A stretch of 64,000 bases of DNA, taken from NCBI GenBank assembly GCA_020697715.1, contig JAEHCO010000001.1, forward strand, positions 352,001-416,000, given 5' to 3'. This stretch comes from Methanobacteriota archaeon. GTDB taxonomy: Archaea > Thermoplasmatota > Thermoplasmata > SG8-5 > JAGLSY01. The notes under the pieces were generated by a model. That model saw nothing but the letters and a program-made list of their open reading frames with translations, searched no databases and was not told where the DNA came from. Of the stretch, positions 36,760 to 61,996 are shown one piece after another. The first letter of the stretch is position 1, and each line of letters starts with the position of its first letter. The translations under genes and the position numbers were made by a program.

Positions 36760-36872
36760 AAAAAATAAGAGCCATTCGGGAGTTCAAATCTCCCAGTCTT
36801 GAATTAATAAAAAATAAGAGCCATTCGGGAGTTCAAATCTCCCAGTCTTGAATTAATAAAAAATAAGAGCCA
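36760..36872. repeat. 49-bp tandem repeat (two full units plus tRNA junction) at tRNA-Thr 3' end
   Basis: AAAAAATAAGAGCCATTCGGGAGTTCAAATCTCCCAGTCTTGAATTAAT twice; GCC at 36771, 36820, 36869. Confidence 0.93.
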
Positions 36873-36977
36873 CTGGGGAGATTTGAACTCCCGACCTACT
36901 GATTACGAATCAGTCGCTATATAGCGCTTGAATGCATCATGAATCGGCGCATTCAAATACCGCTAAGCCACAGTGGC
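36868..36977 (-). tRNA. tRNA-Thr(CGT) with 38-nt D-loop BHB intron (36921-36958)
   Basis: GCCACTG/CAGTGGC acceptor, ACTGA-TTCGTAA-TCAGT, GGGAG-TTCAAAT-CTCCC; BHB helix AGCG/CGCT with GTA and ATA bulges. Confidence 0.93.
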
Positions 36978-39520: not shown

Positions 39521-39618
39521 AACCTCGAGGGATAAACATTGGGAAAGTATTTTAATGTCCTCTTATTGTGGGGATTCATAATATGGCATATCTCGGTATG
39601 CTGTGATTGAAAAAGTCC

Positions 39619-39776
39619 ATATGGGCCCGTAGCAGACAGGCCCGTAAATACCAAAACAATAATATTTGGGGCTGTAATTGACCTACGTGCCCGCAAATAA
39701 GAAAACAATACAATATGGGCCCGTAGCCGACCTACGTGCCCGCAAATAAGAAAACAATACAATATGGGCCCGTAGC
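39619..39776 (+). repeat. 49-bp tandem repeat of tRNA-Lys leader plus 5' end (two near-exact and degenerate upstream units)
   Basis: GACCTACGTGCCCGCAAATAAGAAAACAATACAATATGGGCCCGTAGC at 39680 and 39729; degenerate unit 39635-39679; ATATGGGCCCGTAGC at 39619. Confidence 0.9.
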
Positions 39777-39839
39777 TTAGCTAGGTAGAGCGCCCGGCTC
39801 TTAACCGGGTGGTCTTGGGTTCGAATCCCATCGGGCTCG
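39766..39839 (+). tRNA. tRNA-Lys(CTT), intronless
   Basis: GGGCCCG/CGGGCTC acceptor, CCCGG-CTCTTAA-CCGGG, GGGTTCGAATCCC. Confidence 0.95.
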
Positions 39840-39890
39840 TATTTATTTTTTATATTTGTTAAGAGCCCTAATGCCAGTGACGTGGATTCT

Positions 39891-40001
39891 GGTGGGATTC
39901 GAATGAAGTTCGACGAGTGATTTCAATGCATACCATTGAAATCACGAGCAAGACTGGGATGCTGGAAGTAGACCAGTCGATGATCCCATCGGGCTCGTAT
40001 T
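39891..40001 (+). repeat. tRNA-anchored structured element, copy 1 (after tRNA-Lys)
   Basis: Antisense T-arm GGTGGGATTCGAA, 76-nt core 39907-39982, 19-bp direct repeat of tRNA 3' end 39983-40001 (=39825-39843). Confidence 0.85.
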
Positions 40002-40015
40002 CTTTTATTCCAAGA

Positions 40016-43267: not shown

Positions 43268-45838
43268 ATGCCGAAACATCTGACTGTTCAAGATAAGATC
43301 ATTATTCATCTAGCTGCATATATGAGGTATGCGGAAGAGTTCGAATGTCCAGAGGAAGTCTCACAAGCAGGGATAGCTGGAGCCATTGGCAAAAGCAGAG
43401 CGCATACCACCTTGGAATTGAAGGCATTGAGAGATGCGGAACTTATATCCGAGAGAGTGTCACATGTTCGAGGAGCCAAATCCAAGAGAAAGGTGTATAA
43501 TCTCACAGCCTCCGGGATACAACTCGCCCAGAATCTTCGATCCATGATAGACGCTCTGGAGGTGAAGGTGGAGATAGATGGAGAAATATCAGAAACTGGG
43601 GGGCGCATGGCAATAGAAGAGCTGACCAACCGTGCGGGAATAACAGAGTTGGATGCTATGAACCTGATCATTGGTTCAGAGGGTGTCATAAGACCAAATG
43701 CAGCAGCCCCAGATAAAGGCCAGGCAAACAATGTGGAACAAGATAATTTACCAGAATTGAAATACTTTTTTGGTAGACGGGAAGAGCTGGAAAAGCTCGA
43801 AACCTTCCTGAAAGGAGAAGAGGTCCTTCTATCCATAACTGGAATGTCTGGTATTGGAAAAACAACACTGGCAAGGCAGATCATTGCTTCTGATAAGGGG
43901 GAGCGGAAATTCTTCTATATTCAATTGTATGGGTTTGATTCACCCATATCTTTCATCCAACAATTGGCCAGATACTTGAGTTCGGCCAATTATAAACAAT
44001 TGAGCGACTATATCGCGAACAAGATCTCACCGGATCTGAGAGAGGTCAGCTGGCTTCTTGAGGACATATTCTCAAAAGAAAGATTTGTCATGATCCTGGA
44101 TGATCTGGATGTTGTTTCAGGCTCTTTTAATGGTTTCCTAAGGATGATACACGATATTCTGAAAACATCTGGGAATTCTAAATTGATCCTTCTATCTAAC
44201 AAGCCTCCCGAGTTCTATGATAGGAGGGATGTGAACATCGAGAGATCGGTCCTGGAGATGGAATTAGCCGGGCTGGATGATGAAAGTGCCAGGGCCTTGC
44301 TTGACAAGGTCGATAAGGTGGAAGAGGAAACAAGGGCGGAATTGGTAGAGAAGGTGGGGGGACACCCGCTGGCATTGGAATTGGCAGAGGCAGGAACAGG
44401 AACTGCCAGTTTCCACGATTACATTTATGAGCAAATAATATCCAGGGACATAGAAGGGTTTGATTTCCTTTCCCTGTCATCGGTTCTGAGAATGCCTTTC
44501 AGTCCATGGGATGTCAAAGTATTTGGATTCAGCAGGGCGCAAACACTTTCTGGCAATTCATATTTTACAAAATTCGATGATGGGCTGGTGATGATACACA
44601 AAGCGGTGGCCGATGCCGTGCTCGATAAAGCCGGAGAGAAGGGCGTGAAACTGGCCCATGAACGTGCTGCCCAGTATTGCCAGGATTTCGACATAGAGCC
44701 TTCGGAGGTTCTTTATCACCAAATAGAGGCTGGAATGAATGGTCAGGCCAAGGAGATGGTGAATGATATCAGGAATTATCTTCTTTCGAACACGAATTTG
44801 GAAATGACCCTCATCATGCTGGGAAAATTGAATGACCAGCTTGGGGAAGTGGATGCCGAACTATTGGATATAATGGCCGAGGTCATGAACTTGATAGGGG
44901 ATTGGGATGGAGCATTGAACCTATCGACCACCATCGTGCAGGAGGGGTCGCCTGAGCAAAGGATCAGGGCTCTGGTACGCATTGCCAGAATAGACAATAA
45001 GAGAGGGGATTCTAAAAAAGCAATGGGAAATATCGAAGAGGCTGAGGATCTCATGTATTCTCTGGACGATCCAGTAATGGCCTCGGAGATCATGCTGACC
45101 AAGGGCATCATATTGCATGGCATTGGGGAATACAAAGATGCCATGGCCGCCTTCGGTCGATCCATTGATATATCCAAAGAGAAAGGGGATATGAAAGAAT
45201 ATCTCAGAGGGCTTATGGAACGTGGAAATATCGATATCCTCATAGGCTCTTTCAGAACTGCTGGCAAAGATTATGCACTTGCTCTGAGAACGGCAGAAGA
45301 ATTGAATAGTCAGATAGATATTGCCAGGATCAGATTGAACATGGCCCTTCTGCATATGAAGATGGATGAGCTTGAGAAAGCCTCAGAGGGCATGGAGATC
45401 GCCATATCGATAGGGAGGGAGATATGCCAGCCGAGGATAATCGGTTGGGGGCTGATAGGCATAACGGAATGCTATAATAAGATGGGAAAGCCAGAAGATT
45501 CACTTAAGCGAACCGAGGAAGCATTACAGATCTTTGAGAGTCTGGGGGCTTCCGATCTTCTTTCCGCCGTGTATTCCAATATCGGAATGGCGAAAGCATC
45601 TCTTGGTGATGGCGAGGGCGCTATTGCCAGCTTTGAAAAGAGCATTGAGCTTGTCGAGGACCTCGATGGCCCATATACACATGGCCAGAGATATCTGGAA
45701 TATGGTAAGGGAAAGCAGATTCTTGGTAATACCGAGGAAGCGAAGGAATTGCTGGCCAAGGCTCAGACCATATTTGTCGATATTGGAGCGGAAGAAGAGG
45801 CCAGGCAGATCGCGGACATCCTGAAGGATCTTCAATGA
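43268..45838 (+). CDS. wHTH-STAND ATPase-TPR protein
   Basis: SQAGIAGAIGKSRAH HTH; FFGRREEL, GMSGIGKT, ILDD, GGHPLAL; TPR array. Confidence 0.88.
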   Translation: MPKHLTVQDKIIIHLAAYMRYAEEFECPEEVSQAGIAGAIGKSRAHTTLELKALRDAELISERVSHVRGAKSKRKVYNLTASGIQLAQNLRSMIDALEVKVEIDGEISETGGRMAIEELTNRAGITELDAMNLIIGSEGVIRPNAAAPDKGQANNVEQDNLPELKYFFGRREELEKLETFLKGEEVLLSITGMSGIGKTTLARQIIASDKGERKFFYIQLYGFDSPISFIQQLARYLSSANYKQLSDYIANKISPDLREVSWLLEDIFSKERFVMILDDLDVVSGSFNGFLRMIHDILKTSGNSKLILLSNKPPEFYDRRDVNIERSVLEMELAGLDDESARALLDKVDKVEEETRAELVEKVGGHPLALELAEAGTGTASFHDYIYEQIISRDIEGFDFLSLSSVLRMPFSPWDVKVFGFSRAQTLSGNSYFTKFDDGLVMIHKAVADAVLDKAGEKGVKLAHERAAQYCQDFDIEPSEVLYHQIEAGMNGQAKEMVNDIRNYLLSNTNLEMTLIMLGKLNDQLGEVDAELLDIMAEVMNLIGDWDGALNLSTTIVQEGSPEQRIRALVRIARIDNKRGDSKKAMGNIEEAEDLMYSLDDPVMASEIMLTKGIILHGIGEYKDAMAAFGRSIDISKEKGDMKEYLRGLMERGNIDILIGSFRTAGKDYALALRTAEELNSQIDIARIRLNMALLHMKMDELEKASEGMEIAISIGREICQPRIIGWGLIGITECYNKMGKPEDSLKRTEEALQIFESLGASDLLSAVYSNIGMAKASLGDGEGAIASFEKSIELVEDLDGPYTHGQRYLEYGKGKQILGNTEEAKELLAKAQTIFVDIGAEEEARQIADILKDLQ

Positions 45839-61149: not shown

Positions 61150-61249
61150 GGGCGCGTGGCCTAGCCAGGATATGGCGACAGCCTCCTACTCCGACTGCAA
61201 AGTCAGAGGAGCAAGCTGTAAGTCAAGGGTTCGAATCCCTTCGCGCTCG
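61150..61249 (+). tRNA. tRNA-Arg(CCT) with 25-nt canonical 37/38 intron (61189-61213)
   Basis: GGGCGCG/CGCGCTC acceptor, ACAGC-CTCCTA|A-GCTGT, AAGGG-TTCGAAT-CCCTT; BHB helix CTCC/GGAG. Confidence 0.93.
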
Positions 61250-61273
61250 CTTATCTTTTATTTTGTATTTGGA

Positions 61274-61399
61274 GAGTGAGAAGGATGAGAACGTAGTTCG
61301 ACGAGTGATTTCTGAGTGTGGCGAAGAAATAACGAGCAAAACCTGGATGCCGAAGGTAGACAGGTTGATGATCCCTTCGCGCTCGCTTATCTTTTATTT
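61274..61399 (+). repeat. tRNA-anchored structured element, copy 2 (after tRNA-Arg)
   Basis: Degenerate antisense of tRNA end GAGTGAGAAGGAT, 76-nt core 61295-61370, 29-bp direct repeat 61371-61399 (=61235-61263). Confidence 0.85.
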
Positions 61400-61441
61400 G
61401 GGATTGTAATTACAGATCATGAATGAGTAAATACCATCCAC

Positions 61442-61996
61442 TCAGTTCATGCTCATTTCCATGAACTTCATTTCCCTTCTCTTACCTTCCAGGAATCGAT
61501 AGACGGCGGCATGTTCACTGCCTTCAAGCACCATCTCGGCCGCTCGTTTGGCCGCATTGAGCGATATGATATCTCCGATCAGGCCAACTGTATTGCCATA
61601 TACCACCATCTCGGACCCTGAAAGTTCCTCTATAAGACGCCGTGTCCTTCCACCAGTGCCGATTATCCTGGCTCTGACCCTTCTGACATGCTTCGAGTCC
61701 TTACCTGAATAATCCCTTATATCTATGAGCTCGAGATAATTATCATCATCAAAGAGACGCATGGCATTTGGTGGAGAAAATCCTCTGGCTATGGCCTTTA
61801 CCACATCTCTGGCAGCCATTGCCTTGAAGTTCGCACCTCCGGCCTTATCCCCGCCCTTGAAGGAAAGGGACACATCTCCAGTCTTGGAATTTATCTTGAT
61901 CTTGACCTCGCCAAGTCTTTCTATCAGCTTCTTGGTCTCTCCTTCTGGACCTATGAGTACCGCCACTCTTTCCTTAGGCATTCGGACATACATCAT
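61442..61996 (-). CDS. KH-domain ribosome biogenesis protein Dim2/Pno1
   Basis: RVAVLIGPEG, KAIARGF, RARIIGTGGRTR, GSEHAAVY. Confidence 0.93.
   Translation of the reverse strand: MMYVRMPKERVAVLIGPEGETKKLIERLGEVKIKINSKTGDVSLSFKGGDKAGGANFKAMAARDVVKAIARGFSPPNAMRLFDDDNYLELIDIRDYSGKDSKHVRRVRARIIGTGGRTRRLIEELSGSEMVVYGNTVGLIGDIISLNAAKRAAEMVLEGSEHAAVYRFLEGKRREMKFMEMSMN

Follow-up and report, generated by a model that had tools for sequence, protein, structure and literature searches.

A candidate archaeal counterpart of the Escherichia coli tRNA-linked repeats and RtT RNA behind a tRNA-Arg(CCT) gene

The tRNA-linked repeats (TLRs) of Escherichia coli have been known since 1978 and, in a 2021 paper (PMC8144298), are given no known function; a stringent-response claim made in 1991 was retracted in 1994. 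[quoted passage not shown] The three TLRs behind 5S rRNA owe their transcription to terminator read-through, which is described for the rrnB TLR, and in vitro they bind Hfq and CsrA; the authors regard the repeated 3' end as a possible signal for processing. For RtT RNA (Rfam family RF00391), PMC8250186 describes a covariation-supported helix framing tandem GA. Accessible texts describe TLRs in E. coli and other Enterobacteriales, and a full-text literature search, the coverage of which left out most subscription papers, found no description of TLRs in archaea. Here we describe an element located directly downstream of a tRNA-Arg(CCT) gene in a 64,000-nt stretch of DNA (the window) from a Thermoplasmatota archaeon (contig JAEHCO010000001.1, positions 352,001 to 416,000). 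We conclude that this element is probably an archaeal member of the TLR/RtT class, that is, a structured-RNA module which mimics a tRNA end, is attached 3' of a tRNA gene and is kept matched to that gene by gene conversion.

Architecture and predicted fold of the element

In the tyrT-tyrV-rttR locus of E. coli K-12, the RtT unit begins with an antisense of the 3' part of tRNA-Tyr, passes through a GA-flanked hairpin of T-loop origin and T-arm sequence up to nt 58, and continues with a 67-nt insert at nt 58/59 followed by the last 18 nt of tRNA-Tyr. The unit in the window has the order trailer, antisense of the tRNA 3' strand, GA/GA-flanked hairpin derived from the T loop, two more hairpins, and an exact copy of nt 59-73 and the trailer. 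The E. coli tyrT units have the same architecture and the same insertion point as the archaeal element: in both, an antisense precedes a GA/GA-flanked hairpin of T-loop derivation, and an insert at nt 58/59 precedes a copy of the tail. As with TLRs in general, the archaeal element follows a stable-RNA gene immediately and in the same orientation, repeats the 3' end of that gene exactly at its own 3' end, and occurs as one to several tandem units of which the last is often partial; a predicted helix that may frame tandem GA recalls the one described for RtT in PMC8250186. The differences are the archaeal host, a tail copy comprising 15 nt of tRNA without CCA whose identity extends into the trailer, an insert whose two hairpins are unrelated in sequence to the E. 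coli insert, and T-rich archaeal terminators in place of hairpin terminators.

The whole element is a folded unit of about 110 bases which begins 25 nt past tRNA-Arg(CCT) on the same strand and has a conserved folded core at 61287-61370 (Table 1). The two repeats S1 and S2 were identical at 29 of 29 positions (15 nt of tRNA and 14 nt of trailer), with nt 59 as the first tRNA position in common and an exact run of 27 nt from C61, and the 107 nt that separate them contain no open reading frame (ORF). In a hand alignment with the reverse-complemented tRNA tail, the antisense (GAGTGAGAAGGAT) agreed at 11 of 14 positions and showed one deletion; it consists of 7 acceptor-like nt, 5 T-stem-like nt and AT. 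The upstream tRNA-Arg(CCT) is complete without the element. Aragorn overlooked this gene when run without its intron option and mistyped it as Ala(agc) with that option; the intron-less orthologue in a congener (G003) was typed as Arg(cct), confirming the assignment to Arg(CCT), the name given in an initial annotation, with an intron at 37/38. The intron measures about 25 nt (61186-61211), is absent from the congener orthologue (L008, G003:C22) and appears to have been gained or lost within one genus.

A sister element stands behind tRNA-Lys(CTT) (locus 39765-40009), with the same layout and with flanks from tRNA-Lys. Its antisense is interrupted by a 22-nt bulge, and its S2 matches the tRNA-Lys tail and trailer exactly over 19 nt, starting at nt 59. 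Both 97-nt cores contain AGTTCGACGAG, and their mean column identity was 86%. The initial annotation had described this pair as copies with a common core and with flanks that follow the adjoining tRNA, and for the Arg(CCT) copy had noted a 29-nt exact repeat of the tRNA end and its T-rich trailer, a degenerate antisense before the core, and a repeat that starts at the same T-loop position as in the Lys copy; these points were all confirmed in our analysis.

RNAfold predicted a four-way junction for the Arg(CCT) copy, closed by a helix between antisense and tail copy in which 61274-61284 pairs with 61374-61384 through ten pairs and one mismatch. In this predicted fold, the closing helix matches the stacked acceptor and T stems of the tRNA in both length and sequence. 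The 7 + 5 antisense layout was seen in both the Arg(CCT) copy and the Arg(TCT) copies. The energy of the Arg(CCT) copy was -36.5 kcal/mol compared with -25.35 +/- 2.95 for shuffled sequences (z -3.78; 0 of 200 shuffles as good), and the fold of the Lys copy gave a z of -5.32.

We also assessed pairing in an alignment of nine copies from two species, which was fitted to our own structure so that its pairing statistics are biased towards that structure. In this alignment, 94.0% of cells were paired compared with 31.6-47.9% when partners were slid, the outer helix was 88.9% paired over its six modelled pairs, and 11 of the 27 modelled pairs were changed on both sides, a number equalled by none of 500 shuffles. 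This indicates that the helices are maintained through compensatory change. The GA/GA around hairpin P1 is able to form tandem G.A pairs and flanks P1 in four of the nine copies; the other five have TC and normal pairing. An ungapped count of antisense/tail pairing did not separate a tRNA's own pairs (9.32 of 15) from mismatched ones (8.37 of 15), because bulges and short helices are common, and a version of the count based on the best complementary window was discarded as misled by A/T-rich trailers.

Table 1 Features of the tRNA-Arg(CCT) and tRNA-Lys(CTT) loci, in window coordinates
Feature	Position	Strand	Basis
tRNA-Arg(CCT) gene, canonical 37/38 intron, nt 73 (discriminator G) at 61249	61150..61249	+	Rfam RF00005, 49.5 bits
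S1, first 29-nt repeat copy: tRNA nt 59-73 and 14-nt T-rich trailer	61235..61263	+	repeat search, exact run
A/T-rich spacer from trailer to antisense, 10 nt	61264..61273	+	direct reading
A, imperfect antisense of tRNA 3' strand; 5' strand of outer helix	61274..61286	+	direct reading; RNAfold
Conserved module GA-GAAC-GTA-GTTC-GA	61287..61301	+	same module in DPANN and gammaproteobacterial units
Hairpin P1, inverted copy of T-loop sequence	61289-61299	+	100% of cells paired, 9 copies
69-nt insert between tRNA-type nt 58 and 59	61302..61370	+	structure supplied to R1 model
Hairpin P2 within the insert	61305-61333	+	5 pairs changed on both sides
Hairpin P3 within the insert, internal tandem GA	61341-61365	+	5 pairs changed on both sides
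S2, second exact copy: tRNA nt 59-73 (61371-61385) and 14-nt trailer (61386-61399); 3' strand of outer helix	61371..61399	+	
tRNA-Lys(CTT)	39765..39840	+	aragorn; Rfam 63.2 bits
Sister element behind tRNA-Lys(CTT)	39863..40001	+	antisense 39863-39898, core 39893-39989, S2 39983-40001

Copies behind other tRNA genes and in related genomes

R1, a covariance model of the Arg(CCT) and Lys copies of the window, was searched against 101 genomes and matched nine places in two of them, four in the genome of the window (G000) and five in its congener G003. All nine matches were directly 3' of a same-strand tRNA, namely Lys(CTT), Arg(CCT), Arg(TCT), Arg(TCG) or Gly(TCC); eight ended in an exact or near-exact copy of the tail of their own tRNA, and the ninth, a truncated Gly(TCC) copy in G003, kept the last 10 nt of the tail. 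A further model built from these nine copies (R2) was searched against 151 genomes of the class at E <= 0.1 and matched 13, of which seven hold tRNA-linked copies on inspection. At the 17 new R2 places inspected, a same-strand tRNA was found just upstream of 11, representing ten distinct loci (L012 and L023 being units of the same locus), and the remaining six had no tRNA and look like false matches. The model added copies behind Glu(CTC), Leu(CAG), Leu(TAG) and Arg(CCG) in the genome of the window, and behind Gly(TCC), with two tandem units, Arg(GCG) and His(GTG) in other families. The genome of the window contains at least eight elements, and its R2 matches were tRNA-linked in eight of eight cases, each directly 3' of a same-strand tRNA whose tail it repeats at its end, with none found away from a tRNA. 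The core family is carried by tRNAs for Lys, Arg (four), Gly, Glu and Leu (two), with flanks that differ with each tRNA.

A count independent of any model gave a comparable picture. Copies of the last 15 nt of a tRNA (at most two mismatches, within 700 nt) were found downstream of 12 of the 44 tRNAs of this genome and upstream of none, and mismatched tRNA/flank pairs used as a control matched in 3 of 1824 cases; tail copies exceed chance. Four of the 12 tRNAs, Ala(GGC), Ser(GGA), Gly(GCC) and a tRNA at C11:45558, have other, shorter inserts, and antisense-only remnants were seen downstream of Thr(GGT), Tyr(GTA), Met(CAT) and the Arg(TCG) orthologue. Second units, full or partial, occur at L004, L012/L023, L026, L027 and L028; the Arg(CCT) locus has one full unit. 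Behind Leu(CAG) and Leu(TAG) (L026, G000 C22:278740-279100; L028, C28:52235-52600), an 82-nt unit is followed by a second unit of about 150 nt which has a different insert and again ends in the tRNA tail. A 239-nt contig of depth 2.3 from a relative about 94% alike (compared with window 61346-61547) has an extra short core-less unit after S2; this sequence is too weak to use, and hints at array-length variation in nature.

Element copies were present at orthologous sites in G000 and G003, which implies that they are old and stable rather than recently transposed. The P3 regions of the Lys and Arg(CCT) copies were 80% alike within G003 and 73% within G000, and orthologues were 52-57% alike; P3 is thus alike by genome rather than by orthology, and cores therefore move or convert between loci. 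The acceptor stem of tRNA-Glu(CTC) differs between the two species, each S2 matches its own tRNA, and P2 and P3 show compensatory changes. At tRNA-Arg(TCG), the antisense was the perfect complement of each species' own 3' strand, and because the G003 antisense differs from the tRNA 5' strand it was not copied from that strand. These comparisons show that the tail copy and the antisense track species-specific tRNA changes. The S1 and S2 trailers are identical in the window, where they have been homogenised, and different in G003. Units are gained or lost whole, with a full and a partial unit at Arg(TCG) in G003 and a partial unit only in G000, and with a tRNA-Glu element present in G000 and G003 and absent in a third genome, G001. 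These patterns are consistent with gene conversion and unequal crossing-over between direct repeats, and would also fit an active mobile phase. Between the two species, the cassette of tRNA-Glu(CTC) and its element has opposite orientations with respect to both flanks (G003:C22:45908-46154 versus G000:C11 at about 155529-155779; L123, L024).

The shared module in other lineages and the assignment to the TLR/RtT class

We scanned one genome per species with the pattern GGATKMGAACN{3,5}GTTCGAYGAG and obtained 89 stretches, 80 of which were listed as loci. Aragorn placed a same-strand tRNA just upstream of 30 of these 80 loci, and 20 of the 30 had a downstream tail copy by a strict test; at two more loci tRNA sequence was visible, interrupted by contig ends, and the other 48, which lack a tRNA in this position and lie mostly in GC-rich sequence, look like matches by chance. 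The tRNA-linked loci came from DPANN archaea (Woese-, Pace- and Nanoarchaeota), Thermoplasmatota and Gammaproteobacteria. The Thermoplasmatota loci include metagenome-assembled genomes (MAGs) titled Saliniplasma and Haladaptatiplasma, and in the Gammaproteobacteria a tRNA-Gln is followed by tandem units of 173-174 nt. When 20 of the 80 listed loci were run against Rfam, the gammaproteobacterial tRNA-Gln units passed RF00391 at seven places in five loci (46.2-50.8 bits) and one Nanoarchaeia unit reached 24.6 bits on the same family; the remaining archaeal units among these 20 loci gave no RtT match. In the gammaproteobacterial units (L042, L075, L081, L088, L091), the module GGATGAGAAC(C)-N3-(G)GTTCGACGAG is exactly that of the archaeal copies, and placement and tail copy are the same; these units differ from the archaeal ones in passing RF00391, in having inserts of 72-83 nt with three to four GC-rich hairpins and in an encoded CCA. 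A module of 24 nt is therefore common to the archaeal copies and to bona fide RtT units.

If the element belongs to the TLR/RtT class, it would be transcribed by tRNA read-through or from the A/T-rich trailer, and its tRNA-like closing helix, discriminator base and T-rich tract may recruit tRNA end maturation and termination (RNase P, RNase Z, CCA addition). Such processing would give the element RNA defined and stable ends; the predicted product is a discrete RNA of about 112 nt, spanning about 61274 to 61385, which may or may not carry CCA, and L7Ae is a conceivable protein partner of the CUGA...UGAAGA loop in P2. The S1/S2 direct repeats may in turn drive gene conversion and unequal crossing-over, and this recombination would keep the flanks matched to the tRNA, make and delete tandem units and swap cores between loci. 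RNAs cut from tRNA or rRNA precursors, such as the 3' external transcribed spacer of leuZ and RrA/B/F behind 5S rRNA (PMC8144298), offer a parallel in that they depend on a stable-RNA operon promoter and on processing, as the archaeal element presumably does; they differ in having demonstrated partners (a small-RNA sponge for the former, Hfq/CsrA for the latter).

Several observations weigh against this assignment. The Arg(CCT) copy aligned to RF00391 end to end (model positions 1-130) at 16.3 bits, with an E-value of 0.58 in a 171-nt slice and a threshold of 45, and a search of the whole genome of the window with RF00391 at E <= 10 found nothing. T-rich tracts bracket each unit and should terminate archaeal transcription. 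The Gly(TCC) copy and several DPANN copies pair at the GGAT/ATCC level only, so that an antisense mimicking the acceptor is not universal. Decayed copies are found in relatives (Lys in G002, Gly(TCC) in G003, a partial Gly(CCC) copy in G001), and because of this decay and of the G001 tRNA-Glu without an element, copies are dispensable. The R2 model scored 13-17.5 bits on E. coli and gammaproteobacterial RtT units and 16.6-23.4 bits on chance pattern matches without an upstream tRNA; we therefore rejected R2 as a test of cross-domain homology, since chance matches score as high as true RtT units. As R2 adds nothing, the cross-domain link rests on the 24-nt module and the architecture, parts of which go back to the universal T arm, a sequence available from every tRNA, and convergence could account for them. 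The GA/GA and CGAG parts of the module are not tRNA-derived. We consider it probable that the archaeal copies and the RtT units share common descent, including transfer, with convergence as the lesser, though substantial, possibility. Two related searches also returned nothing: the Lys copy had no RtT match in a permissive Rfam scan, and R2 found no match in the E. coli region of 5S-linked TLRs (best 4.0 bits).

Membership of the archaeal copies in the TLR/RtT class would mean that elements of this type occur in both bacteria and archaea, and that the phenomenon is independent of bacteria-specific factors such as Hfq, CsrA and RNase E. It would provide a wide comparative set, in which the conserved features so far are the GA/GA hairpin of T-loop derivation, insertion at nt 58/59 and the copied tail, and would make the old question of functional RNA versus selfish repeat testable in two domains. 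In practical terms, no Rfam 15 family captured the archaeal copies in a window scan and in permissive scans of both copies, and such units can stand, as here, beside intron-bearing tRNAs that aragorn mistypes.

Alternative explanations and neighbouring features

The initial annotation had proposed a fixed crossover or cleavage point in the T loop, and the corresponding explanation is that the core is an actively mobile module which enters T-loop sequence at a fixed bond (nt 58/59), takes its flanks from the target through host functions or a circular intermediate, and spreads between tRNA loci and domains. We consider this unlikely. GTTCGA always precedes the insert and ATCC always follows it, and in all seven genus core-type copies that keep a tail copy the copy starts at nt 59, so that the breakpoint was constant at this level. 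Across the family it was not: among 46 repeats, a total which includes five places fetched twice (L012/L046, L008/L062, L006/L095, L013/L087, L081/L097), copies started at nt 59 (17), 58 (14), 60 (7), 61 (7) and 57 (1). The boundary is nearly constant rather than a single bond, and lies where the 3' strand of the stacked T and acceptor stems begins; because the copy is that 3' strand, the range of 57-61 also fits a structural limit, and the fixed cleavage point was not upheld. Mosaic cores, with a P3 type common to Lys and Arg(CCT) within a genome and unlike in orthologues, would suit a mobile module, but gene conversion accounts for them without transposition. Further points in favour of mobility are the patchy spread (13 of 151 class genomes matched and seven with tRNA-linked copies, together with DPANN and Gammaproteobacteria), the tRNA-Glu element missing from G001, and tandem arrays with a partial last unit, which resemble products of rolling-circle replication or circle integration. 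In a preprint (10.1101/2024.07.17.603846), E. coli 'mobilome' coverage over tyrT-rttR was raised under stress. Set against these points are the copies at orthologous sites in two species, the tRNA linkage of eight of eight matches in the genome of the window and, according to PMC8144298, the E. coli TLRs behind 5S rRNA, which has no T loop. An enzyme candidate was also lacking. None of the 16 ORFs neighbouring the two window copies encodes an integrase, transposase or reverse transcriptase (they have housekeeping-type domains or no Pfam match), and the whole genome has one Phage_integrase match and one Y1_Tnp gene, both elsewhere, the latter on another contig, and no match to RVT_1. In a scan of viral contigs with the pattern, all six matches were one coding sequence and none was tRNA-linked. 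A broader form of the idea, in which TLR/RtT units are one cross-domain family of self-propagating parasites of stable-RNA genes, each a T-loop-bounded module that copies itself into a hairpin from the 3' end of a host tRNA or 5S rRNA using universal host machinery only, possibly through unit-length circles from tandem arrays, and that has moved between Bacteria, Thermoplasmatota and DPANN, seems to us quite unlikely.

The element might alternatively be a neutral by-product, with inverted and tandem duplications of tRNA ends arising by replication template switching and unequal recombination and having no RNA function. The graded series in this genome, which runs from antisense-only remnants through short units with other inserts to the array of three 49-nt units at 36760-36906, fits such an origin, as do the sense-plus-antisense units of the tRNA-Lys 5' end upstream of that gene and the decay of copies in relatives. 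P2 and P3 are kept by compensatory changes in orthologous and paralogous copies, however, a motif that is not tRNA-derived (GA...GA, CGAG) is common to archaea and Gammaproteobacteria, and for the E. coli TLRs linked to 5S rRNA both transcription and in vitro binding of Hfq and CsrA are reported (PMC8144298). We consider this explanation very unlikely. Far less probable again is that the repeats are remnant attL/attR sites of a virus or plasmid that integrated at the tRNA 3' end (attB) and has since lost nearly all of its DNA. Integrase insertion leaves direct repeats of the 3' part of a tRNA that start in the T loop, and a direct repeat of this kind is indeed what the window shows. The resemblance ends there: only 107 nt lie between the repeats, with no kilobase-sized DNA and no integrase gene or fragment nearby, one core stands behind at least eight different tRNAs with flanks matching each and no fixed att core, and the tail antisense and conserved fold are unaccounted for. 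The initial annotation was thus right to set the element apart from a classical integrase with one fixed attP. An assembly error that collapsed or mis-joined a repeat could be suspected in a metagenome-type assembly of 34 contigs, but such an artefact is scarcely credible, given the same architecture at orthologous loci of the independent G003 assembly, in many MAGs and in finished E. coli K-12, a repeat of no more than 29 nt, and flanks of the two copies that are different and unique.

Other identities were considered and set aside. The miniature elements of IS200/IS605 (PATEs) are small, have two hairpins and insert beside a fixed short sequence without inverted terminal repeats, all of which is true of the element. 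They were ruled out as its identity, since eight of eight copies are tRNA-linked with none away from a tRNA, P2 is unlike P3, the hairpins covary between copies in one genome, and the single Y1_Tnp gene is unlinked. Searches for a self-cleaving ribozyme or a box C/D small RNA gave tRNA matches only in the window at Rfam gathering thresholds, and weak unrelated matches only in permissive scans of the Arg(CCT) and Lys copies. By eye we also considered hammerhead-like (GAUGA-hairpin-GA), k-turn, box C/D and integron attC readings and dropped them, since each lacks core residues or the geometry required and had no backing from Rfam. A bulge-helix-bulge intron, or a split or permuted tRNA, is a less likely reading: the upstream tRNA needs no removal of the element to be complete, and by eye, with no dedicated tool run, no 3-4-3 motif was seen at 61301/61302 and 61370/61371.

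Several further features of the window and the genome were recorded. The array at 36760-36906 on the minus strand lies behind an intron-bearing tRNA at about 36867-36977 and consists of three tandem units of 49 nt, each made of a T-rich trailer, a 20-nt T-arm antisense and a short piece resembling an acceptor tail; it looks like a minimal, insert-less form of the same theme. Upstream of tRNA-Lys, at 39610-39786, there are two to three units of 49 nt, each with A/T-rich promoter-like sequence, the first ~14 nt of tRNA-Lys and their antisense, so that the 5' end of the tRNA is also duplicated as a hairpin. A small palindromic repeat, AGATGCGAC...CCCACGCATCT, recurs in T-rich trailers behind tRNAs and TLR units: it is found in the spacer between tRNA-Arg(TCT) and its element (L006), in the trailer of tRNA-Glu in G001 (L120), downstream in L008 and L026, and in G000 C11 just 3' of tRNA-Phe (472667-472739, minus strand). 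Downstream of the tRNA-Lys locus, an ORF of 856 aa at 43268-45838 on the plus strand encodes NB-ARC/AAA ATPase and TPR domains (a STAND-type NTPase).

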